A stretch of DNA of 64,000 bases from a virus (IMGVR_UViG_3300032234_001062:13060-77059); one strand, 5' to 3'. Numbered from the stretch's first letter, positions 40,660 to 63,436 are shown. Program-made: numbers and translations. Notes: generated from the letters alone by a model not told the origin.

Positions 40660-40901
40660 GTGAATCAAAAGAAACAAACGAATCAAAAGAAGAATTGAAA
40701 TTTAAAAAAATTATTGATGAAAATAATTTAATTGAACTTAAAGGTTTTTTAAACAAAATGAAAATAGTTTTAGAAAATAAATTAGAAGATAAAATAGATG
40801 AACTCACTCAATTAAAACAAGATTTACCTCATTTAATTCATTTAAAAAGAATGAGTAAATTACAACAGGAAAAAGATAATGACTCCACAAGAAATATCTA
40901 G
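40656..40901 (+). CDS. Hypothetical coiled-coil protein
   Basis: 81 aa, ATGA overlap with the upstream gene, AGGA RBS. Confidence 0.6.
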   Translation: MSESKETNESKEELKFKKIIDENNLIELKGFLNKMKIVLENKLEDKIDELTQLKQDLPHLIHLKRMSKLQQEKDNDSTRNI

Positions 40902-43900
40902 AAAAACTTACTCTGAATTATCATCTAAATTTTATTTAGTTACATCTGATTTAAGTGGTATTCTTGCTGTAAATAAAATTTGGAATTTATTATATTATAG
41001 CGTTAATATAGTTAGAGAAAATTCAGCATTATCTTTTCCACCCGTTAATTTTTGTACTAAAATTGATGTAATAAATCAAAATACTTTAAGATTATTTCAA
41101 CAATACATTTCAAATAAAATTAATGTTGGAGTTGGAGTAAATATAAAATTCAATGATATTTTTAATTCTCAATTAATTATTAATCTTCCAACACCCGAAA
41201 AAATTGCATTATTAGTCACTATTCCTGATGATGAACAAAATAAATTTATTTATAGACAATATATTAGTTCAATAGAAAGTGCATTAAATGATTTTTTAAA
41301 TAGTGACCAAGAATTATTTTTAATTAATAATAAAAATTCATTAGAAGCACTTTGGGGATCGTTGATAGTAGGATTAGAAACTTATAGAAAATATTTTCAA
41401 CCTTTTGATATTGTAAGTACAATAATTGATTATAATAATGTACAAAATATTTTAAGAGAAACAATAGATGAACAAAAAAATTCTGGTTTTTCACCGAATC
41501 AAGCTCTTAGCCAATCTATTACATTAGCAAGTAGAATAAATGTTGAAAGTCCTGTTGCTTATAATAATTCTGAGTCATGGAAAACATTATTTAATAACGT
41601 TCATACATTAGTTTTAAATGCAATAATTACGAATAAAAGAACTTTTATGATTAGAAATAGTATTTCATCTAGTCTTGATAATGTTTTAAGTTCAGAAAGA
41701 AATATTTTTACATCTAAAGAAAATAGTGCTACAAATTATTCTTTTGAAGCTTCTGAACATAGTTCAATTAATAAACAAATTAAGTTAGATAATAGTAATA
41801 TATCTACTAGTAATTGGCAAAATAATTATGTAACATACTATAATTCACGAAATGCTTTTACTAGAAGTAAAATAGCATCTATATCTACGAATAATAGTAA
41901 TAAAATATTAACTTTAGATCCTTATAATGGAATATCAGAAAACATTAAAACATTTACATTTCCAACTATTGGTCAAGGAATAATTAATGAAACTGATTTT
42001 CCAGCAACTGGAGTTAATTTAACTAGAAATAGTAATAATAGCGATGTAAATTTATTTTCTCTTACTATTACATCTGGAAGCGCAATAATTAAAACAGCTG
42101 ATTTTAAATTAAAAGATAATCTTTTTGAAAATAATTATTTAAAAATAGAAACATTAAAAAATAATTTTTCTTTAAAATATATAAATTTATCAAGAATTAA
42201 AACTTTTGAAACAACTTTTCCTGCTAATGGAATTACTTTTAATAAGGTAGATAATAATAACATTATTTTATTTAATTCTAAACTAGAATACGTTAATTCT
42301 CAAAAAAATCCAACTATTAATCAAAATTACATTTTATCATCAAATATTTTTAATACAAATTTATTTTCAAAAAGTTTTTCAATAATTAATTCAGAATTTA
42401 ATAACACTGCTTTTGAAGTGCCTTTTCAATCATTTTATATCAATAAAAACAATATAGATCTTTTTACATTAAAAATAAATTATAAAAATTCTAATAATAG
42501 TTCAAATTATTTATTTAAATTAGATGACACTATTTTTAATACTAATAGATTTTTACCTCAAAGCGTTAATTCTCCTAATTCAAAAATTTATTGGCAACCT
42601 TATTATGATGATATTAGTTTTAATAATGGAATAGGAATTTATCAAGGTACTTCTCAAAATATATCATTAACTGTTGATCAATCTGGAGAGATGTTAATTG
42701 ATAAATCTTCTACTTGTTCTGGTAATGTTGGCTTTTCTAATATTTTTTATTTAAAAAATAATGAAAAAAACTTAGATATTAATTTCGATTTTGATTATTA
42801 TATTTCAAGTAGTGGAGATGTTTTATCTCAAGATGAAATTTCTTTTAAAATCATATCATTAGTTTCAGAAGATATTAACGATGTAGAATCAGTTTATTCT
42901 TATTCATTACCTTCTAATCAATTACAATTAGACACTCAATATTCAGCTCATTTTACTTTTAAAGCTAAAAATTACACTAGTTATAGAATTTTAATTAATT
43001 TTAATAAAAAAGATAATAAAAATTTAAAAATTAAATTTAAAAATTTTTATGTTGGAATAACATCTTTAAATTCAACCACTTTACCTTATACTAACATAGA
43101 TGATTTTTTAAATGATTATAATTTATATAATTATAATACAATAACATCATCACAATTTTATTTAAATAAAAAAAATATAAACATTTTATCTTTTTATACT
43201 GAATTATTAAATAATAATTTAATAGAATCTATTGAATTTATAAATGTTAACAATAACTTAAATTGGTTTAATAATAATTCTTCAATACTTAATAATACTA
43301 TTAATAATCCTTTAATATCAGTTACAAAAAGTAACAATCCAAATTTAAATTTTACTATTTTAAAAAAATTAAGTAATGTCTTAGGTGGAAAAATATATGC
43401 TGATTTTTTTATTAAACCTAATCAAATTAATTTAACTTTAAATGTTAAATTCAAATATCAAATTTTTAATAGTAGTTTTTCAACATCTGATTTAACTTTT
43501 AAAATAGTAAAAAGTTCAAATAATACATTAATAAAAAGTTTTTCAATTGATATAAATAATACTACAGTAAATAATATATATTCAGCTAGTTTTGATTTTA
43601 TTCCAAATGAATCAACTAGTTATCTTTTTTTAATTCAAATAAATGATCAACAATCAGTAGATATTAATATTAAATTAAGTGAAATTTATATAGGAACTGA
43701 AGATTTTTCTGAAACAACTAGAACTTATAAAACAGTTAAAAGTTTTTTAGAAGATTATAATTTATATAATAGAAATAATAACAATTTATTTACATTAAGT
43801 AATGTAAATGATACTAAGATTGGTTTTTATTCTAATGTTTTTGAAAATATAAACGTTAAAAACTTTTCTTTTATAAATATAAATTCTAATTTAGAATGGT

Positions 43901-46900
43901 TAGTAGGACAAACATCTTTAACTAGTTTTTCTGTTAATCCAAAAATATCTTTTGATTATGATAATCAATTATTAGGTTTTAATTTTAATAAAAATAATTC
44001 TAATTTACAAAATTCTTATATTTATAATGATTTCATAATTAATCAAAACGATACTGGAAAAACATTAAATTTTAGTTTTACTTACAATATAAAATCAAAT
44101 ACTTTTAAAATAGAAGATATTCAAATTGAAATATATGCATTAAATAATGGAATAGAAGCATTAACAGCAATAAAAACTTGGCAATTATTAGAAAATCTTA
44201 ATAGAGATAATAATTTTTCTGGAAACTTTAGTACAACAACAACTAGATATTATAGATTAAAAATAAAAGTTAATTCTAATTCTAGTGATTTTTTAAATAT
44301 TCAATTTAAAAATTTTTATATTGGAATAACTACATTTTTACAAAATAGCATTACATATACTAATCCTTTAAATTTAATTAATCATTTATATTTAGATTCA
44401 AATTTTATTAATAATAATTTTTTAGTTTTTTCTTTTTCTGGAAGTTCACCATATAAAATAAAATTTACATCTGAACCATTTTATTTAGGAAGTAAAATAA
44501 CTTATACTTTTACTAATGTTAACAATGATTTAAAATTTTTATTTGGAAGTTCTATTTCTAATAGTTATTCTGGTGTAGATCCTGTTACTTATATTGATAG
44601 TGGATATGAAAAAAAATATTATGATTCTTTTATTACTCTTTTAAAAAGAATTTTTTCAATTTTAAATTCATATGCTTTTGCAAGATTATTTGTTCCAGAA
44701 GCATTTAATGAAGACGAGGATTTTTTTAATACTGGAGTAAATATTCCATTTTCAGTCAAAAGATATTTTCGAGATTTATTAGATGAAACTATTTCTAACC
44801 TTACTTTTGAAGAAATTATAAAAAAAGATCCTAGAAGTAATTTTTTACAAAAACCTCCTGATAAAGATTTTACTAAAGAAGTGACTTGGAGACAAGGTAT
44901 ACCAAGTGATGTTTTTAATCTTAAAGAATTGGCTAAATTTAAAAATACTTTAAGTAAAATTAAAACACAGTTAAATAAAGTAAAATCAATATTAGAGGCT
45001 ATCAAATCTTTTATATCAATATTAGATCAATTAATTGAATTAGGAGAAGATATTTTAGGAACTTTATTAGATCAAATAATAAAACAATTAACTAAAATAG
45101 TTGATAACATCGCTAGTACTGGTTTTTATTGGTTACCAGTAATAGAATATTATGCTTTAAATTTTGTAAGTTCAAGAGAATCTAATTTAGGAGGACTTAG
45201 ATTTTTTGATAAATATATTCAAGATACTATGAGATCACCATATCAAGAAGATGAAAGCGCAGAAATAAATAATGGTTTTTTACAAGACGTTTTTAATTTA
45301 TCTGTTTCTAATTCTCAAATGGTATTAGATGATTTAAATGTAGAATTATCACAGAATAGATCAAAAATAAGTGCAGATTTAATAGAAAATAACCTTTTCT
45401 TTCTTCCTTTTAGAAGTACTACTTATGAAGAGTTTATGCAAGTTATCATTGATGGATTATCTGATCCTTATGATTTACCTGAATTAGGATTATCATTAAA
45501 TATACAAAAAAAGAATCCAAAAGATCCAAATGATAAAACTAAAACAAAGCAAACTAATAGATCAGAAATAAGTATTAATAGAAGAACATTTAGACCTGGT
45601 GCTCCTAAATGGGGAGTAGGAAGTCAAAGTTCAGTAGTAGTAATTGCAATAAATCTTCCAGCATTTGAAGATTTAACAAGTGGAATTACTGGTTTTGCTC
45701 AAGGACTTTTAAATATTTTAAAGCCTATAGAAAAATTAACTAGATTTACTCTTAAAATAAACAAAGAAAAGAGTTGGAAAGAAAGAAATCAAAATTTAGA
45801 AAACGATAGAATTGCAAATAATACAAAAATTGAAAAGAATGTAAACGATTTTTTAACCAATTTTTGGAATGTTAAAGTTGATAAAAATGGTACTACTTAT
45901 GAACAAAAATGGGAAAAACATAAAAAAGAATATGAAGAATTTAAAACCAATAAAATACCGAGAATTAAATATTTAAAAACTTTATTAGATGATAAATATT
46001 TTCAATCCTCTAGACCACCATATCAAACTGAATATAATAATTTAATTGAAGTTTATAAAAATTTTCAAGATGCTCAAACAAAATTTAATGAAGATTTTAA
46101 AAAAACAAATGCAGAAGTTGAGAGATTGAATCTAGATATAATACAACAACAATCTTATTATGAAGGTTATATTACTAAAATTATTAATTTTTTGGAAGGT
46201 TATTTATACATAAAAGAAGTAACAAAAAAATTTAATGATAGAGATGAAATTAATAGTGATGATGATGATACAATAACTGAGTTAGGTGATTTTAAAGAAA
46301 GACTTGTTACTCAATATGAAAGTTGGTGGGATAGTTTAATAGTTGATGATGCTTTAAATGAAAGAGGTGGATTTTTTTCTGGATATCGTAGTAAGTATCC
46401 TGATTTTTATGGAATTACAGTTGGTTCTGTATTTCCATTTATTTTTTCTGCAGCAAAAGGTTTATTACAAAATTTAAAGAAATTTAATGAAAATGAAAGT
46501 ACTTTTTCCTTATCAGATGAATTTGAATTATTAATTGCTCCAATAGAAGATTATATTGAAGATATAGAAGGGTTTATTTATGCTATTGATTCTATTATAG
46601 ATTTTATAGATGCTCTTACTAAAATAAATATTTCATATCTAACAATAAAAACTGGTAATGGTGTTGCTGATATTATTAATCAATTACAAAATGCAACTGG
46701 ATTTCCAAATGAAGATAAACGACAAATAATTTTGGGCGGATTATTAGGTGCTGGATATGTAGATCCAGACAGCGGTGAATTCGACTTATCTGGATATTAT
46801 AATGAAGCAGCAAAAGAATTTCAAGAGGACGCTAAGGACCTCTTTAATGATTTGAAATTAAGTAATGAAGAAAAAGGAATTGATTTCCTTAATAAACTTT

Positions 46901-46917
46901 TTGGATCAGGTAGTTAA
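40879..46917 (+). CDS. Very large Asn-rich protein with three ~210-aa internal repeats, probable virion protein
   Basis: 2012-aa ORF. Repeats end in I.F(K/S)(N/E)(F/I)Y(V/I)G; helical C-terminal third. Confidence 0.75.
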   Translation: MTPQEISRKTYSELSSKFYLVTSDLSGILAVNKIWNLLYYSVNIVRENSALSFPPVNFCTKIDVINQNTLRLFQQYISNKINVGVGVNIKFNDIFNSQLIINLPTPEKIALLVTIPDDEQNKFIYRQYISSIESALNDFLNSDQELFLINNKNSLEALWGSLIVGLETYRKYFQPFDIVSTIIDYNNVQNILRETIDEQKNSGFSPNQALSQSITLASRINVESPVAYNNSESWKTLFNNVHTLVLNAIITNKRTFMIRNSISSSLDNVLSSERNIFTSKENSATNYSFEASEHSSINKQIKLDNSNISTSNWQNNYVTYYNSRNAFTRSKIASISTNNSNKILTLDPYNGISENIKTFTFPTIGQGIINETDFPATGVNLTRNSNNSDVNLFSLTITSGSAIIKTADFKLKDNLFENNYLKIETLKNNFSLKYINLSRIKTFETTFPANGITFNKVDNNNIILFNSKLEYVNSQKNPTINQNYILSSNIFNTNLFSKSFSIINSEFNNTAFEVPFQSFYINKNNIDLFTLKINYKNSNNSSNYLFKLDDTIFNTNRFLPQSVNSPNSKIYWQPYYDDISFNNGIGIYQGTSQNISLTVDQSGEMLIDKSSTCSGNVGFSNIFYLKNNEKNLDINFDFDYYISSSGDVLSQDEISFKIISLVSEDINDVESVYSYSLPSNQLQLDTQYSAHFTFKAKNYTSYRILINFNKKDNKNLKIKFKNFYVGITSLNSTTLPYTNIDDFLNDYNLYNYNTITSSQFYLNKKNINILSFYTELLNNNLIESIEFINVNNNLNWFNNNSSILNNTINNPLISVTKSNNPNLNFTILKKLSNVLGGKIYADFFIKPNQINLTLNVKFKYQIFNSSFSTSDLTFKIVKSSNNTLIKSFSIDINNTTVNNIYSASFDFIPNESTSYLFLIQINDQQSVDINIKLSEIYIGTEDFSETTRTYKTVKSFLEDYNLYNRNNNNLFTLSNVNDTKIGFYSNVFENINVKNFSFININSNLEWLVGQTSLTSFSVNPKISFDYDNQLLGFNFNKNNSNLQNSYIYNDFIINQNDTGKTLNFSFTYNIKSNTFKIEDIQIEIYALNNGIEALTAIKTWQLLENLNRDNNFSGNFSTTTTRYYRLKIKVNSNSSDFLNIQFKNFYIGITTFLQNSITYTNPLNLINHLYLDSNFINNNFLVFSFSGSSPYKIKFTSEPFYLGSKITYTFTNVNNDLKFLFGSSISNSYSGVDPVTYIDSGYEKKYYDSFITLLKRIFSILNSYAFARLFVPEAFNEDEDFFNTGVNIPFSVKRYFRDLLDETISNLTFEEIIKKDPRSNFLQKPPDKDFTKEVTWRQGIPSDVFNLKELAKFKNTLSKIKTQLNKVKSILEAIKSFISILDQLIELGEDILGTLLDQIIKQLTKIVDNIASTGFYWLPVIEYYALNFVSSRESNLGGLRFFDKYIQDTMRSPYQEDESAEINNGFLQDVFNLSVSNSQMVLDDLNVELSQNRSKISADLIENNLFFLPFRSTTYEEFMQVIIDGLSDPYDLPELGLSLNIQKKNPKDPNDKTKTKQTNRSEISINRRTFRPGAPKWGVGSQSSVVVIAINLPAFEDLTSGITGFAQGLLNILKPIEKLTRFTLKINKEKSWKERNQNLENDRIANNTKIEKNVNDFLTNFWNVKVDKNGTTYEQKWEKHKKEYEEFKTNKIPRIKYLKTLLDDKYFQSSRPPYQTEYNNLIEVYKNFQDAQTKFNEDFKKTNAEVERLNLDIIQQQSYYEGYITKIINFLEGYLYIKEVTKKFNDRDEINSDDDDTITELGDFKERLVTQYESWWDSLIVDDALNERGGFFSGYRSKYPDFYGITVGSVFPFIFSAAKGLLQNLKKFNENESTFSLSDEFELLIAPIEDYIEDIEGFIYAIDSIIDFIDALTKINISYLTIKTGNGVADIINQLQNATGFPNEDKRQIILGGLLGAGYVDPDSGEFDLSGYYNEAAKEFQEDAKDLFNDLKLSNEEKGIDFLNKLFGSGS

Positions 46918-48643: not shown

Positions 48644-50479
48644 ATGACTGAGCAAGAAATAATAGAACAATTAGTCGCTGCTAAAGATTCTTATTATAAT
48701 GGCGAACCTTTTATGACTGATTCTGATTTTGACTTTTTAGAAAATAAATTAAGAATTTTAAATCCTAAAAGTAAGTATTTTAATATGGTTGGGATTTCTT
48801 CTCCACATTCCAAAAAAGTTCAACACTATTATCGAATGAGATCTTTACAAAAAGCAAATAGTGAAAATGATTTTAGATTGTGGTATCAAAGAAATAAAAT
48901 AACTCTAAATACTAATTTAACAGTAATGCATAAAATTGATGGACTTTCTGGAAGTGCTAAATATGAAAATGGTAAAATCGTTTATTTAGCAACGAGAGGA
49001 GATGGATTAGAAGGGCAAGACGTTTCGCATCTTATTCCTTATATTAATATTCCTTCTGAAATACCAGAAAAAAGTACATTATATATAAGAGGAGAATTTG
49101 TAATTAAAAAAGACTCTCATCTTACAACTATTTATCCAAATTCACCTCTTAGAAATTTAGCCAGTGGTATTATTAATCGTAAAGATATGTTAAATGAGGC
49201 TAAATATCTTTCTTTTATTACTTATGGTCTAGAAGGAGAAATTTTTGAATCTGGATTTGAAACTGAAAAATTAAAGACTCTAAAAGATTTTGGATTTGAT
49301 TCTTTAAATACAGTTCTTTGTAATGATTATAGTGAACTTAAAAAATATTTAGAAGATGCTATTAATTGGAGAGAAGAAGTTGAATATGAAATTGATGGAA
49401 TTGTAATAATAATTAATAATATTTCTATTCAAAGATCTTTAGAAGATGATAATGAGCATCATCCACAATGGAGTATAGCATGGAAATTTCCATCTCAGGG
49501 TGCTTGGACAACTTTAAAAAATATCGAATGGAATACTTCTAGACATGGTCGTTTAGTTCCAGTAGGTATTTTTGATCCAGTCAATATTGGAGGTGCTCAA
49601 ATAACTCGTGCTACACTTAATAATTATAAGCAAATAGTTGATTTACAATTAAGTATTGGTGATTCTATATTTGTAGAAAGAGCAAACGATGTAATTCCAA
49701 AAATTACTGATTGTAAGAAAATAGTTGAATATATTCCATTACAAAATGTTAGATGTTCTTGTGGATCTTTTTCTGATCTAAAATTAGATGGAGTACATAT
49801 TTATTGTAAAAATCCTAATTGTAGTGAAAGAATAATTGAACAAATTTTATTCTGGGTACAAAAAATTGGAATTGAGTTTTTCTCTCGTGCTACAATTAGA
49901 ACTTTACATGAAAAAGGAATTTTAAATTCAATAGAAGATTTATATAAATTAAATTATAATTCTCTTATTGGAATTCATGGTTTAGGAGATAAGAAAATTT
50001 ATAATATTCTTAATGAAATTAAAAGAACATCTCATATGTCTCAATTAGATTTTTTGAGTTCACTTGGAATTCCAATGGTTGGAAAGAAAGTGTTTCAAAA
50101 ATTAGGGATTTTTACAGTTAATGATTTTATAAATTGGAAAAATTTTGAATATGTAACTGGTGAAAAAATAATTGAATGGAAAAGTGATACAGCTAATTTA
50201 GAATTATTTAATTCATTAGTAAAGTGTATTAATTTTACGGAGGAAGAAAAAATGAATTCAGCTAATAAAATTGGAGTTTGCGCAACTGGTAAAGGACCAT
50301 TCACTAGAAATGAATTAATTAAAAAAATCAATGAATCTCAGAATTACTTTTGGGTTGATTCTATTAATGATTCAGTAAAAGTTCTTTTATGTGATGATCC
50401 CAATGATAATTCTAGTAAATTAATTAAAGCAAAAAAGAAAGGAATTCAATTAGTGAAATATAGTGAATTTGATTTTTAA
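48644..50479 (+). CDS. ligA: NAD-dependent DNA ligase
   Basis: 611 aa. KIDGLS (KxDG), TRGDG..G.DV, RGE, DG.V, AWKF, RATL.N, RANDVIP, Cys4 zinc finger, HhH repeats and C-terminal BRCT. Confidence 0.95.
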   Translation: MTEQEIIEQLVAAKDSYYNGEPFMTDSDFDFLENKLRILNPKSKYFNMVGISSPHSKKVQHYYRMRSLQKANSENDFRLWYQRNKITLNTNLTVMHKIDGLSGSAKYENGKIVYLATRGDGLEGQDVSHLIPYINIPSEIPEKSTLYIRGEFVIKKDSHLTTIYPNSPLRNLASGIINRKDMLNEAKYLSFITYGLEGEIFESGFETEKLKTLKDFGFDSLNTVLCNDYSELKKYLEDAINWREEVEYEIDGIVIIINNISIQRSLEDDNEHHPQWSIAWKFPSQGAWTTLKNIEWNTSRHGRLVPVGIFDPVNIGGAQITRATLNNYKQIVDLQLSIGDSIFVERANDVIPKITDCKKIVEYIPLQNVRCSCGSFSDLKLDGVHIYCKNPNCSERIIEQILFWVQKIGIEFFSRATIRTLHEKGILNSIEDLYKLNYNSLIGIHGLGDKKIYNILNEIKRTSHMSQLDFLSSLGIPMVGKKVFQKLGIFTVNDFINWKNFEYVTGEKIIEWKSDTANLELFNSLVKCINFTEEEKMNSANKIGVCATGKGPFTRNELIKKINESQNYFWVDSINDSVKVLLCDDPNDNSSKLIKAKKKGIQLVKYSEFDF

Positions 50480-58525: not shown

Positions 58526-58900
58526 TTAAAATGATGTTCCTCTATCACAATTAGATATTACAATTCCTTTTTTACATTCAAAAAAAGTATTAGTAAATTC
58601 TAAAACTTTGTTAGGATCATATTCAGCACAACTAAATACATCTAAATAAATTTCACCAATGTTTTCAGCAAAATGAGCAGTGATTGAGGAGGTTTCTATT
58701 GCTTGTAAAACAGTAATTCCATATAGTTTTTCATCATGTGAGGCAAATTTTTCAATCCAAGTTTCACCATACATTTTCATATTAATTTCATCACATAATT
58801 CTTTAATATATTGTTTAACAATTTCAGGATTACTGATTTTATCTTTATTTGCTCCATTAAAATCAAAAGCACAAGATAAACCCCAAGCTTTTTTATTCAT
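58526..58900 (-). CDS. Pyruvoyl-dependent S-adenosylmethionine decarboxylase homologue, divergent type
   Basis: 124 aa. GITVLQAIETSSITAHF...YLDVFSC retains the autocleavage Ser, His and Cys. Confidence 0.85.
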   Translation of the reverse strand: MNKKAWGLSCAFDFNGANKDKISNPEIVKQYIKELCDEINMKMYGETWIEKFASHDEKLYGITVLQAIETSSITAHFAENIGEIYLDVFSCAEYDPNKVLEFTNTFFECKKGIVISNCDRGTSF

Positions 58901-59261
58901 CTAATAAACCTCTACTTATTCTAGATATTTTTTTTATTTTTGGTCTTAATACTTGTACAATAAAATCTATTCCATCAAAAGGTTTACATGTTTTTCCACA
59001 TGTAAAAATATCAAAATGTCCATAACCTATTTCAGGATAAGTATGAACGCTACAATGAGATTCTGATAGAATCCAAATACCTGTAACTCCTTGAGGTTCA
59101 AATTTATGATCAATATATTTAAGAGGGGTTGCACCGCTAAATATTGAAGCGTTTCTTAATAATTCTTGTATTTTTTCAGGATCGTTTAATATGTTATTTT
59201 CACAATCCCATAAATCAGCAATAATGTGTTCTCCCTCAGAAAGGAAATCTTCTTTCTCCAC
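58893..59261 (-). CDS. speD: S-adenosylmethionine decarboxylase proenzyme (SpeD/SpeH type)
   Basis: 122 aa, GTG start. HKFEPQGVTGIWILSESHCSVHTYPE...DIFTCG is the canonical motif. Confidence 0.92.
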   Translation of the reverse strand: MEKEDFLSEGEHIIADLWDCENNILNDPEKIQELLRNASIFSGATPLKYIDHKFEPQGVTGIWILSESHCSVHTYPEIGYGHFDIFTCGKTCKPFDGIDFIVQVLRPKIKKISRISRGLLDE

Positions 59262-59584: not shown

Positions 59585-60121
59585 TTACTGACACTCTTTT
59601 TTTTCTATCTCATTTATTTTATTTTTTTCATTTAAATCAAATTTTAATTCATATTTATTTACTATTTTAATGAATGTTTTTACATATAAACAGCGATTAT
59701 AAGGAGGCATCCACTTATCTGGACCCTTAGAACCTTTACTACGATTACTATAAACAGATAATAGAACTAAATGATGTTCATCTGAATAATTATTAGCGAA
59801 ATCATTTCTTTGTTTATCAGTCCATTGATCAGCTCCATGTTTATATGCCCACTTTAATGGAACTGTATGATCCACATCTAATCTTTCTGGTTCATCAAAA
59901 TATTTATTTTCCCAAATAGAATACCATCTACCACTTAATATATTACATTTTTTAGAGTCCATAGTTACCATATCTTTTGAATTATCAATTAAAATATGTT
60001 CTCTAACAGTAATACATCCTCTAACAGTATTCCATCCTTCTCCAAATTTATCACGAGAATACTTTTCTTGTCCAAAAATTGAACAAGAAAATAGTAAAAT
60101 CAGAATTATTATTTTTTTCAT
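59585..60121 (-). CDS. HNH endonuclease (DUF1524 / GmrSD C-terminal type) with N-terminal signal peptide
   Basis: LDVDHTVPL.WAY.HGA..W....R.DFAN...L...S...NRSKG.KGP..W.PP. ATG 60121 gives MKKIIILILLFSCSIFG|QE. Confidence 0.85.
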   Translation of the reverse strand: MKKIIILILLFSCSIFGQEKYSRDKFGEGWNTVRGCITVREHILIDNSKDMVTMDSKKCNILSGRWYSIWENKYFDEPERLDVDHTVPLKWAYKHGADQWTDKQRNDFANNYSDEHHLVLLSVYSNRSKGSKGPDKWMPPYNRCLYVKTFIKIVNKYELKFDLNEKNKINEIEKKECQ

Positions 60122-60138
60122 TATAATTATATATTTAT

Positions 60139-61338
60139 TTATGTCCACTGTTTTTGTTTAAAATTATCTCCATAGATAACTTGACTTCCACTAGATGTTG
60201 TTTTTCCTTCTACATAATCGCGAGCAAAAGATGTCCAATCAGTCGCTGTATTAACTGGAACGTTTTGAAAAACAGCATTATAATACTCATTCTGTAATTT
60301 AAAATCGTGTGGTAATCCCATTAAATACATATGTTCACGAAGAGTTAAATAACGATCTTCACTTGGATGAATCATGTTAGGAGCTCTCATAGTTATAGCA
60401 TTATAAGCTTCTCCATTACGATAAAAATGAGGTGAAGAATTCCACCAACCTTTTCCTATTGAGATTTTATATTTAGCCCATTCAATATGCTTAATTTCTT
60501 TTTCATATTCTTTTTTATCTTTATAAAATTCGATAAAATCATCTTGTAAACCTATTTCAAATAAATAATATTCTAAAGAAACTATTTTTTGTTTTTTAGA
60601 CTTAGAACTCATTACATCTCGCCAATTTGTTCCATACTTTTCTAAATAATATTTATAATAAACATTATCTTTAAGTTGTTCTTTCATAATAGAAAGAGAA
60701 TTTTCTGCTGTTGAACTATAATTAGCAAATTCACCCTCTAAATAGTCTTTAGGAGTTTTATGTGTTCTATTATACCAATTAAAATTAGGAGCGTGTTCTG
60801 AATCCCAGAAAAAGGCAAAAGATCTTTTACGATTCTGTGGCAAACCATGTAAAGTTGAACCTGTATAAACAAAAGATGTACTGTAACCATATTTTTTTCC
60901 TATATTAATTGCTTGTTCTCTTACCCACCTTCCAAAGTTTTGCATTAATCCTGGTGCATTTTCGAATATCATAACCTTAGGTCTAATATCTCTTAAAATC
61001 AATGAAGACGCTAAATACATCCATTTATTAGAACTATAATCATTTTCTTCATTAGCAGTATGATTACCAATAGTTGGATTTAATCTTGATAATCCAGCGC
61101 ATGGTGGTACAGCACTAACTATCATTGTATTTTTAAATAAATCATCTTTTAAAGAAAGATTATCTATATTTTCATTATCAAGTGTTCTAAATGGTACACC
61201 ATTATAATATTGTTTAAAATTTTCTTCATTAGTTTTAAAATCATTCCAAGAAATAGCCCAACTAGGAGCCTCTTCTAAAGCACGATGAGCTCCTATTGCC
61301 ATTCCACCAATTAATGGTATTATTACGCCATGTTTCAT
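60139..61338 (-). CDS. C5-cytosine DNA methyltransferase-like enzyme with atypical SAM-binding motifs
   Basis: 399 aa. Motifs IV PPC, VI FENAPGL, VIII PQNRKR and IX RYLTLRE...MGLPHDF are intact. Motif I reads IPLIGG and motif X reads QNVPV. Confidence 0.85.
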   Translation of the reverse strand: MKHGVIIPLIGGMAIGAHRALEEAPSWAISWNDFKTNEENFKQYYNGVPFRTLDNENIDNLSLKDDLFKNTMIVSAVPPCAGLSRLNPTIGNHTANEENDYSSNKWMYLASSLILRDIRPKVMIFENAPGLMQNFGRWVREQAINIGKKYGYSTSFVYTGSTLHGLPQNRKRSFAFFWDSEHAPNFNWYNRTHKTPKDYLEGEFANYSSTAENSLSIMKEQLKDNVYYKYYLEKYGTNWRDVMSSKSKKQKIVSLEYYLFEIGLQDDFIEFYKDKKEYEKEIKHIEWAKYKISIGKGWWNSSPHFYRNGEAYNAITMRAPNMIHPSEDRYLTLREHMYLMGLPHDFKLQNEYYNAVFQNVPVNTATDWTSFARDYVEGKTTSSGSQVIYGDNFKQKQWT

Positions 61339-62447
61339 TATAATATTTCCTCTATAGATAATTTTATTTCTTTTTCTGAAGAAATAACATATTTATCAAT
61401 TAATTTTTGTAAAAAATTTACATCCTTTAATTTATTAGAAATATCAAAAGAATCATCTATTAATAATTCATTTAAAATATTTTGATCTATAATTCCTTCT
61501 TTTGTATAAACAGAATTATGTATATAAGGTATAACTCCTCTAGTTAAAGCCTCCATAAATCTAGGTGAAAAAGCTTTTTTATCATATCCTGGTAATATTA
61601 CAGTATATTTTGATTTTTTTAAATAATTTATATAATCTTCTTTTGTGATATTAGTATAAATTTCTTTATATTTATCTTGAAGAAAAACATTACTATTAGG
61701 AAGAGAATAAAAAGTATCATATAATTTTTGTATATATTTTCTATCTGGAGTTAGACATGTAAAACCTATACACCAATCATATTTTTTCTCTTCATTAATT
61801 TCTAAATGATCTGTATGATAAATTTTAAGAAAAGGATGACCTTTAGTTTTGAATAATTGAGAATCATAAATAAAAAATCTACGATAATCTACTCCATTCA
61901 TTAATTCTACATCACTATGATTACTTTCTTGTGGATCATGAAGAAAATGATTCCAAGGTATATTCATAGTGCTAACAAAAGCATAATGATTTAAAAATTT
62001 TCTAATCATTTTTTGAGCACTAATAAAATTAATTAGTTTATTTTCTTTTATTGTTTTATTTAAATTTTTAGGTTTACGAAATTTAAAAGCTGAAGTCATA
62101 ATACCAAATATTTCAACAAAAGAAACAGCATTAATAGAATTTTTTAATTCAGTATATCCATTTTTACTTTCATCAATAAAACCTTGCCAAGTTTGTATTT
62201 CTTTTTTTTGATTCATTATTAAAATATCAAAAATATTATTCAAATAATCATCATGTCTTGTTACGTGATTTTGATTTTCAAAATCTGTTAATAATGCTAA
62301 ATTATAACGATCTTTAAATTTAGTTAACCAATAAGTATAAGTAATATATGAATGTTTAGATGCATTTCTTAAATTAAGCGGTGACCCAAAACCAACTACA
62401 ATAGTTGGTTTTTTTTCATCATATGTATTTTTTTTTACTGTTTTCAT
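61338..62447 (-). CDS. GT-B glycosyltransferase, T4 beta-glucosyltransferase-like C-terminal half
   Basis: 369 aa. KKYDW.IGF....R...Y.NYLKKSKYTVILPGYD..FSPRFMEAL..GVIP parallels the BGT KYD...R...ITLRVWE region (judged by eye). Confidence 0.65.
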   Translation of the reverse strand: MKTVKKNTYDEKKPTIVVGFGSPLNLRNASKHSYITYTYWLTKFKDRYNLALLTDFENQNHVTRHDDYLNNIFDILIMNQKKEIQTWQGFIDESKNGYTELKNSINAVSFVEIFGIMTSAFKFRKPKNLNKTIKENKLINFISAQKMIRKFLNHYAFVSTMNIPWNHFLHDPQESNHSDVELMNGVDYRRFFIYDSQLFKTKGHPFLKIYHTDHLEINEEKKYDWCIGFTCLTPDRKYIQKLYDTFYSLPNSNVFLQDKYKEIYTNITKEDYINYLKKSKYTVILPGYDKKAFSPRFMEALTRGVIPYIHNSVYTKEGIIDQNILNELLIDDSFDISNKLKDVNFLQKLIDKYVISSEKEIKLSIEEIL

Positions 62448-63436
62448 TAATCTTCCTTATTAAATTGTTTTTTAATCCAATTATAAGTTTCTTTCATTCC
62501 TGTTTCTAATGGAACACTAGGCTCCCAATCAATTAATTTTTTTATTAAAGTATTATCACTATTTCTACTTTTAACTCCTTGAGGAGCATCTAATTTATAT
62601 TGATAAGTAGATTCAGTAATTTGTGTTTTAGAGATTTTCATAACTAAATCATGTAAATATTTAATTGTAACTCCTTGATTAGAACCTAAATTAATTGGAC
62701 CTTGAATTTTATTATTCACTAATTTATGTATTCCAGTAATAGCATCTTCTATATACATAAAAGATCTTCTTTGATTTCCATCTCCCCAAATTTCTATGTT
62801 ATCTTTTTTATTATTAATATATTCTAAAACTTTTCTAATTGAAGCTGCTGGTGCTTTTTCTCTTCCATCTTTCCATGATCCATGTGGACCATATACATTA
62901 TGAAAACGAGCAATTGTAACAGGAACACCAAATTCTTTATTTAAGTAACGATAAAGTTCTTCACAGTATAGTTTATTTAGACCATAAAGTAAATCTGGAT
63001 GTGCTGGCCAAGCGTCTCCTTCTTTTAACATAATATCCTTAGAATCATCACTTTGAAGAAAATCATTATAAACACAAGCTGATGAAGAATAAAATACATG
63101 TGGCTTATTTCCACTTTTTAAAATACTTTCAATTAAATTAATATGAATCTTTCCTGATAAACCAGTCATTAGATGATTATTTTCACAATACCCAATTCCA
63201 CCCATGTCCTCAGCAAGATTATAAATAATATTAACGCCTTGAGTTACTGAATCAGTAATTTGAGGATTATTCATATCTCCTTTTTTACCGTGATAATTAT
63301 CAGCCTTTTTAAATCTTTGATACCATTCATTTTTAGATTTTTTATCATAAGCTTTAACTTCATAACCTAAATCTAAACAACTCTTTACAAGATGTCCACC
63401 AATAAATCCACCCGCTCCAGTAATTGATACTTTCAT
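62447..63436 (-). CDS. GDP-mannose 3,5-epimerase-like NAD-dependent epimerase
   Basis: 329 aa. GAGGFIG, NLAEDMGGIG, SSSACVY, AWPA, YGLNK, RFHNVYGP.G.W..GREKAPAA, WGDG.Q.RSF and RNSDN all match the GME family. Confidence 0.9.
   Translation of the reverse strand: MKVSITGAGGFIGGHLVKSCLDLGYEVKAYDKKSKNEWYQRFKKADNYHGKKGDMNNPQITDSVTQGVNIIYNLAEDMGGIGYCENNHLMTGLSGKIHINLIESILKSGNKPHVFYSSSACVYNDFLQSDDSKDIMLKEGDAWPAHPDLLYGLNKLYCEELYRYLNKEFGVPVTIARFHNVYGPHGSWKDGREKAPAASIRKVLEYINNKKDNIEIWGDGNQRRSFMYIEDAITGIHKLVNNKIQGPINLGSNQGVTIKYLHDLVMKISKTQITESTYQYKLDAPQGVKSRNSDNTLIKKLIDWEPSVPLETGMKETYNWIKKQFNKED

Follow-up and report, generated by a model that had tools for sequence, protein, structure and literature searches.

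What does a DNA cytosine methyltransferase do once its cofactor motifs have been rewritten and its catalytic motifs kept? The question is raised by a methyltransferase-like (MTase-like) gene in a 64,000-nucleotide stretch of viral DNA (IMGVR_UViG_3300032234_001062:13060-77059; 'the window' denotes this whole stretch). We read its product as a DNA cytosine-C5 transferase that works within a 5-hydroxymethylcytosine (5hmC) and glycosylation module, where it would carry out S-adenosylmethionine (SAM)-dependent methylation of the cytosines left by a pre-replicative pathway, as a 'patch'. We put the probability of this reading at roughly 0.45.

The protein matches the Pfam family PF00145 (DNA_methylase; 77.9 bits, cut-off 22) as well as phrog_116, and HMMER aligns it weakly with cytosine-C5 DNA methyltransferases (C5-MTases) among PDB sequences. 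An AlphaFold2 (AF2) model built from 38 relatives (predicted local distance difference test (pLDDT) 90.7; predicted template modelling score (pTM) 0.90) gave a Foldseek probability of 1.00 against MET1, M.HaeIII, CmoX (8yf3), M.HhaI and DNMT1. The modelled protein is predicted to combine a Rossmann-type catalytic domain with a target-recognition domain, and has an extra, mostly helical insert of approximately 100 amino acids between motifs VIII and IX. Canonical C5-MTases such as M.HhaI and M.HaeIII have the same fold and the same order of motifs IV, VI, VIII and IX, and share the PC dipeptide, the EN(V/A) glutamate and QxRxR. In contrast to these enzymes, the family has (I/V)PL(I/V)GG as motif I, Ser or Thr in motif II and x-Q-N-V-P rather than G-N-(A/S)-V in motif X; it also differs in the insert, in a dcm score below the cut-off, and in being confined to viruses, outside restriction–modification contexts.

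Translation bears out the first-pass annotation in describing the PC nucleophile, EN, QxRxR and motif IX as intact (motif IX in full, IHPSEDRYLTLREHMYLMGLPHD) and motif I as IPLIGG instead of FxGxGG (Table 1). The acidic residue of motif II, which that annotation had called not evident, is replaced: S30 sits opposite the motif-II Glu of PDB entry 3g7u. Its account of motif X needs a shift of one residue: QNVPV is indeed non-canonical, but the Gln probably does not stand in for the Gly. Because the profile alignment pairs the 'QNVPVNTA' of the family with the 'NAVPVNLA' of M.HaeIII, Q358 most likely replaces the canonical motif-X Asn (N304 of HhaI), and N359 the small Ala or Ser residue.

A word-based search found 279 relatives of the MTase-like protein, and conservation was counted in 191 aligned non-redundant relatives, which include the distant proteins of cyanophage S-TIM54 and Pseudoalteromonas phage XG4 (approximately 29% identity). 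C80, E126, N127, A128, P129, R170 and R172 of the catalytic motifs are invariant, as are H164, G165 and P167 (all 191/191), and the unusual cofactor residues are hardly less so, a degree of agreement that far exceeds chance. P8, L9, G11 and G12 each occur in 190 of the 191; residue 30 is Ser or Thr, and residue 31 aromatic, in 190; F34 is found in 187 and N37 in 189; Q358 is present in 190, and N359, P361 and T364 in every one. The check that the first-pass annotation had proposed, on IPLIGG and QNVPV among homologues, thus returns near-invariance, and FxGxGG, the motif-II Glu and GN are absent from all 191 aligned relatives. The target-recognition region, too, has motifs kept family-wide, GKGxWDxSP among them. 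As P8, L9, Ser/Thr30, Q358 and N359 are 99–100% conserved, the odd cofactor motifs are a family signature under strict selection and not decay.

In the family, other residues stand in place of the ribose-binding Glu, of Phe and Gly in motif I and of Gly-Asn in motif X. The GG turn, the aromatic residue after position 30 and the motif-III Asp (Asp54; 151/191, 79%) are kept, for which reason the pocket is likely still to bind an adenosyl cofactor; SAM is the most likely donor. In C5-MTase chemistry, the cysteine corresponding to Cys80 adds to C6, the glutamate (Glu126) protonates N3 and the arginines (Arg170 and Arg172) hold O2, which turns C5 nucleophilic. The MTase-like enzyme would follow this course, with Cys80 attacking C6 of a flipped-out cytosine and C5 then accepting a one-carbon unit from the cofactor held in the re-shaped pocket.

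Members occur almost exclusively in viruses, with at least 584 loci in IMG/VR. Among cultured phages, only six records have a member, and a scan of prokaryotes (one genome per species, 185,579 species) returned 17 loci, every one on a contig of a metagenome-assembled genome, with none in isolate bacterial genomes or restriction–modification contexts. These 17 (L103-L119) span very different phyla, one being a Pacearchaeota bin, and are most likely phage contigs binned with cells. In five of five genomes checked, the MTase-like gene is the sole PF00145 homologue. Long forms of 858–1465 amino acids (P0279-P0285) have 450–1050 additional residues, for which we found no Pfam match, no likeness to neighbour proteins and no useful Atlas match; these may be genuine fusions, or else the gene calls may have read through on short contigs.

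The genes that accompany the family point to its setting. ORFs (open reading frames) were called and clustered in 84 loci that cover at least six different gene orders; related phages are included, and the counts are not of independent events. A glycosyltransferase is directly adjacent to the MTase-like gene in 41 of the 84, no more than two genes away in 55 and within the locus in 61. Thirteen loci have a homologue of the DNA alpha-glucosyltransferase PF11440 (E value 1.6e-74), mostly immediately upstream. GT-B-like neighbour clusters, interrelated by hhalign, recur, as do a GT8-like protein and GT2, together with NTP_transferase, epimerases, a DegT aminotransferase, a HAD phosphatase and an APH-like kinase. 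Homologues of the 5-hydroxymethyldeoxyuridine (5-hmdU) DNA kinase PF18723 occur in approximately 8 of the 84 loci. The conserved partners are glycosyltransferases, sugar-nucleotide enzymes and the gp42-like, dCMP-type thymidylate-synthase homologues described below, not polyamine enzymes. In jumbo-phage relatives (L058, L070, L063, L059, L080 and L081), the PF18723 homologue and an inositol-1-phosphate-synthase-like gene both lie a few genes from the MTase-like gene, a neighbourhood that hints at a phosphorylated hydroxymethyl-pyrimidine route.

Divergent thymidylate-synthase (TS) homologues lie within 10 kb of the MTase-like gene in 28 loci. We also searched ten genomes, comprising the record from which the window comes (G000) and nine relatives (G001-G009), three of them 98–100% complete. 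A TS homologue resembling T4 gp42 is present in seven of the nine relatives (G001, G002, G003, G004, G006, G008 and G009). All these TS homologues have Asp at the position of gp42 D179, which we take to be the determinant of dCMP specificity, whereas the canonical ThyA proteins of the same genomes and the dUMP hydroxymethylase of SPO1 have Asn there. In cyanophage S-TIM54, a protein annotated as 'ThyA' (L001:3114-3956, minus strand), encoded two genes from the MTase-like gene, likewise has Asp and not Asn at the dUMP/dCMP specificity position and may act on dCMP.

A TET/JBP oxygenase would be another source of a hydroxyl for glycosylation. No match to PF12851 was found at E ≤ 1 in the ten genomes, a search that a very divergent oxygenase would escape, and we reject a TET/JBP partner for the MTase-like enzyme on that result. 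The only 2-oxoglutarate (2OG) oxygenase seen in the window's record is a P4H-type 2OG-Fe(II) protein (PF13640, 2.2e-14; G000:C1:5831-6448, minus strand), 6.6 kb ahead of the window start. It lies in the tail-fibre cluster, between tail-fibre-like paralogues, and by Pfam it does not resemble TET/JBP.

At the C terminus, most members of the family have a short peptide, particular to the lineage, that matches the ends of the DNA polymerase and glycosyltransferases of the same phage. Examples are '...NTLESFFA' in PolB and '...QTLENFF' in the MTase-like protein, or '...KSKxLF' in the MTase-like protein, '...AKSLF' in a glycosyltransferase and '...KSTALF' in an alpha-glucosyltransferase; the tails include the types ..TLExFF, ..KSxxLF and ..KSVF (L053, L055, L064, L075, L012, L014, L022, L025, L028, L061, L009 and L015). 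As they resemble the polymerase tail of T4 and RB69, we read them as putative sliding-clamp-binding peptides; the T4 alpha-glucosyltransferase reportedly binds the clamp. If the clamp reading is right, it follows that the MTase-like enzyme would work with the glycosyltransferases on replicating phage DNA. Our reading has the enzyme acting on phage DNA within the 5hmC and glycosylation module and, in the relatives that have a tail, at the replication fork. Two loci (L012 and L025) have a tandem pair of MTase-like paralogues, each with its own ..LF tail, immediately after glycosyltransferase genes.

In the window itself, the MTase-like gene is the last of three genes, preceded by those for an epimerase and a glycosyltransferase (Table 1). 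TAATG overlaps at both junctions couple the three translationally, in that order. The same arrangement occurs in close relatives, including G001 (a complete 290-kb genome with terminal repeats) and a 328-kb contig, and a few genes upstream these relatives encode an NTP_transferase, a further GT-B-like protein and a second epimerase. The middle protein of the three has no direct Pfam match; when 1.84 billion proteins were searched with a profile, 196 remote relatives emerged, and Exostosin_GT47 is matched by 18 of 39 aligned members. Its AF2 model (pLDDT 92.5) matches GT-B enzymes, with the beta-glucosyltransferase of T4 (BGT) at rank 50. The label 'BGT-like' would fit it only loosely, as many GT-B matches are better and the remote relatives match GT47.

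Table 1. Window coordinates of the MTase-like gene, its motifs and the neighbouring genes
Feature	Position	Strand	Details
MTase-like ORF	60139..61338	(-)	399 amino acids; C5-cytosine DNA methyltransferase fold; motifs I, II and X non-canonical, as throughout its virus-only subfamily
Motif I variant IIPLIGG (canonical FxGxGG), residues 6-12	61303..61323	(-)	Translation
Motif II position S30-W31 (canonical Glu-aromatic)	61246..61251	(-)	HMMER aligns S30 with the motif-II Glu of PDB 3g7u
Motif IV Pro79-Cys80, predicted catalytic nucleophile	61099..61104	(-)	Translation
Motif VI E126-N-A-P	60952..60963	(-)	Translation
Motif VIII Q168-N-R170-K-R172 (QxRxR)	60823..60837	(-)	Translation
Motif X variant Q358-N359-V-P	60256..60267	(-)	Profile alignment to M.HaeIII
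NAD-dependent NDP-sugar epimerase/dehydratase, first of three	62447..63436	(-)	329 amino acids; PF01370, 1.7e-37; phrog_540
GT-B fold glycosyltransferase, middle of three	61338..62447	(-)	369 amino acids; profile relatives and AF2 model
GmrSD_C/DUF1524 HNH nuclease-domain protein	59585-60148	(-)	PF07510, 3.1e-08
AdoMetDC1 (AdoMet_dc)	58893-59261	(-)	NCBIfam SAM_DCase_Bsu equivalog, 119.9 bits against a cut-off of 75.65
AdoMetDC2 (AdoMet_dc), divergent	58526-58900	(-)	33 bits, below the equivalog cut-off

Several points weigh against SAM-dependent methylation in such a module. No member of the family retains the motif-II Glu or the motif-X Asn, which contact SAM in M.HhaI and CmoX (PMC12783734), and the window protein scores 46.7 bits against the NCBIfam model TIGR00675 (dcm), under its cut-off of 100.65. 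No TS homologue was found in the 77-kb record of the window itself (33% complete), and the link between the window and TS relies on G001, the closest complete relative, in which the MTase-like protein is 68% identical and the synteny is the same. The window's clade also lacks the shared tail, its protein ending in '...GDNFKQKQWT', and the neighbour counts carry the non-independence given above. Complete pre-replicative replacement of cytosine would leave a C5 methylase no substrate, so the 'patch' needs replacement to be incomplete. A search of the literature found no biochemical datum on any family member.

The alternative that survives best, which we nevertheless consider unlikely, is that the enzyme transfers a group other than methyl or draws on a donor that is not SAM; it could, for instance, put a hydroxymethyl or another handle on DNA cytosine after replication for the neighbouring glycosyltransferases to decorate. 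In its favour, none of the three cofactor motifs has its canonical form, the remodelled forms are invariant, and the canonical Asn position, by which CmoX selects the group it transfers (PMC12783734), is Gln in 190 of 191 relatives. A glycosyltransferase stands next to the gene in 41 of 84 loci, with no TET/JBP match to make the hydroxyl. In vitro, C5-MTases are able to couple aldehydes to C5, and in engineered M.MpeI the position equivalent to HhaI N304 reportedly also sets the choice of cofactor. However, the gp42-like, Asp-type TS homologues could supply 5hmC before replication and make a second route unneeded, and we found no conserved partner capable of making a special cofactor. We know of no natural enzyme with a C5-MTase fold whose donor is not derived from SAM. 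It is with some reserve that we name a possible new class of DNA cytosine-C5 transferase, one that would have given up canonical SAM methyl transfer and would install a non-methyl C5 group on phage DNA after replication (at the fork in tailed relatives), giving a TET-independent route to glycosylated cytosine.

Two further readings seem improbable to about the same degree. The enzyme might act on 5hmC already in phage DNA, activating C6 so that the 5-substituent is exchanged or removed as a tailoring step. C5-MTases can exchange the hydroxyl of 5hmC in vitro, and in thymidine hypermodification a leaving group is made by the 5-hmdU DNA kinase. Genes resembling dCMP hydroxymethylase consistently accompany the family, and PF18723 kinase homologues lie near the gene in jumbo-phage relatives (L058, L070 and L063), but only some 8 of 84 loci have the kinase and glycosyltransferases require no such step.

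The other reading is an ordinary orphan 5-methylcytosine (5mC) methyltransferase with an anti-restriction role and a coincidental neighbourhood. The PF00145 match and the fold agree with it, and the tandem paralogues in L012 and L025 could mean two sequence specificities. Against this stand the absence of the family from isolate bacterial genomes and restriction–modification contexts, its tight linkage to glycosyltransferase and Asp-type TS genes in several synteny types, target-recognition motifs (GKGxWDxSP, for instance) that are shared family-wide, and the non-canonical cofactor motifs.

A target in the host is harder still to credit. Here the substrate would be unmodified cytosine of host DNA, for shut-off or marking, and phage DNA would be immune through its substituted C5. 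TS homologues that substitute C5 would leave host DNA as the main substrate, and the window's clade lacks the tail that could tie the enzyme to the fork; most relatives, however, have a tail in common with the phage polymerase and glycosyltransferases, a sign that they work at phage replication forks.

The first-pass annotation had offered decarboxylated SAM (dcSAM) as cofactor, made by AdoMet decarboxylase (AdoMetDC) genes some 1 kb downstream. The genes are where it placed them, a pair of tandem paralogues at a measured distance of 878 bp, of which AdoMetDC1 scores above its NCBIfam equivalog cut-off, and the remodelled residues are of the type that touches the methionine end of SAM. Yet AdoMet_dc lies near the MTase-like gene in 5 of 84 loci, all in the window's clade; the complete genome G002 lacks it, as do G004, G006 and G009, and in G003 it is approximately 190 kb distant. 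Two genes and two intergenic gaps separate the MTase-like gene from the pair, with no translational coupling downstream. Because the odd motifs are family-wide and AdoMet_dc stays near the gene in one clade, the motifs are much older and wider than this neighbourhood. What holds of the original proposal, and is strengthened, is its general inference that the enzyme may transfer another group or use a SAM analogue, as the cofactor site is strictly conserved in its remodelled form and the change includes the HhaI N304 position. Use of dcSAM is chemically conceivable but finds no comparative support; we reject the dcSAM link as an explanation for the family and regard it as very unlikely for the window's enzyme.

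The least credible reading is a CmoX-type carboxymethyltransferase using carboxy-SAM: CmoX (8yf3) is among the top structural matches and is also a phage enzyme, but the family has Ile/Val, Ser/Thr and Gln where CmoX has Phe, Glu and Arg.

CmoX is a DNA cytosine C5-carboxymethyltransferase of Synechococcus phage S-B43 (PDB 8YF3; PMC12783734). It keeps Phe25, Glu47 and Asp69, is defined by an SPPC motif together with Arg350 at the HhaI N304 position, and demonstrated in 2025 that a small change in motif X switches the transferred group (PMC12783734). The window protein has VPPC where CmoX has SPPC, and Gln358 at the N304-equivalent position (190/191 relatives), and on these defining residues we reject identity with CmoX. 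The likeness lies elsewhere: both are phage proteins of the C5-MTase fold with an altered motif X, which in CmoX alters the transferred group and yields a handle for hypermodification. The companions of CmoX are CmoA and an amide ligase, those of this family glycosyltransferases and TS homologues; CmoA was not among the recurrent neighbour clusters, although no CmoA-specific search was made.

Phage clusters that combine a C5-methyltransferase (C5-MT), a 5mYOX/TET oxygenase and glycosyltransferases have been described by Burke et al. 2021 (PMC8256090) and Pyle et al. 2023 (bioRxiv 10.1101/2023.12.21.572611), and some methyltransferase clades of the 5mYOX clusters have deviant motifs IX and X and no detectable methylase activity (PMC8256090; bioRxiv 10.1101/2023.12.21.572611). 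The loci studied here are similar in placing a C5-MT beside glycosyltransferases and an epimerase in uncultured phages. They differ in that the published clusters contain TET, whereas here no PF12851 match was found in the ten genomes and seven of nine relatives have a gp42-like TS homologue, as in a pre-replicative scheme. Pyle et al. also noted methyltransferases near ThyS-associated glycosyltransferases, to which no function was assigned, and left open how pre- and post-replicative routes come to coexist (bioRxiv 10.1101/2023.12.21.572611). We found no paper characterizing the MTase-like family, and nothing relevant on its motifs or on DNA modification in S-TIM5.

The relatives resemble the T-even 5hmC pathway in carrying Asp-type TS and PF11440 alpha-glucosyltransferase homologues. 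The difference is the C5-MTase-fold enzyme, which is an addition here; to our knowledge, T4 has none. Hypermodification of phage DNA supplies both anti-restriction strategies and enzymes for epigenome sequencing. The family, with its 584 or more viral loci, is tied to glycosylation genes with no TET match, and its three cofactor motifs, including the position of the CmoX switch, appear to have been changed and then frozen. If the product is not 5mC, the family would represent new DNA base-modifying chemistry and possibly a new labelling tool. If it is 5mC, as in the methylation of left-over cytosines that we favour, phages that make 5hmC before replication would also carry a post-replicative cytosine modifier.

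Other features of the window lie outside this argument. A scan for promoters and terminators gave nothing informative in this sequence of 25% GC. Downstream of the MTase-like gene are a 69-amino-acid ORF and the HNH nuclease-domain protein, which is kept only in the window's clade. Because its N terminus (MKKIIILILLFSCS...) resembles a lipoprotein signal peptide, this protein may be an exported nuclease. Farther away on the plus strand, positions 40879-46917 hold a 2012-amino-acid ORF with no Pfam match, and positions 48644-50479 encode an NAD-dependent DNA ligase (PF01653, PF03120 and BRCT).

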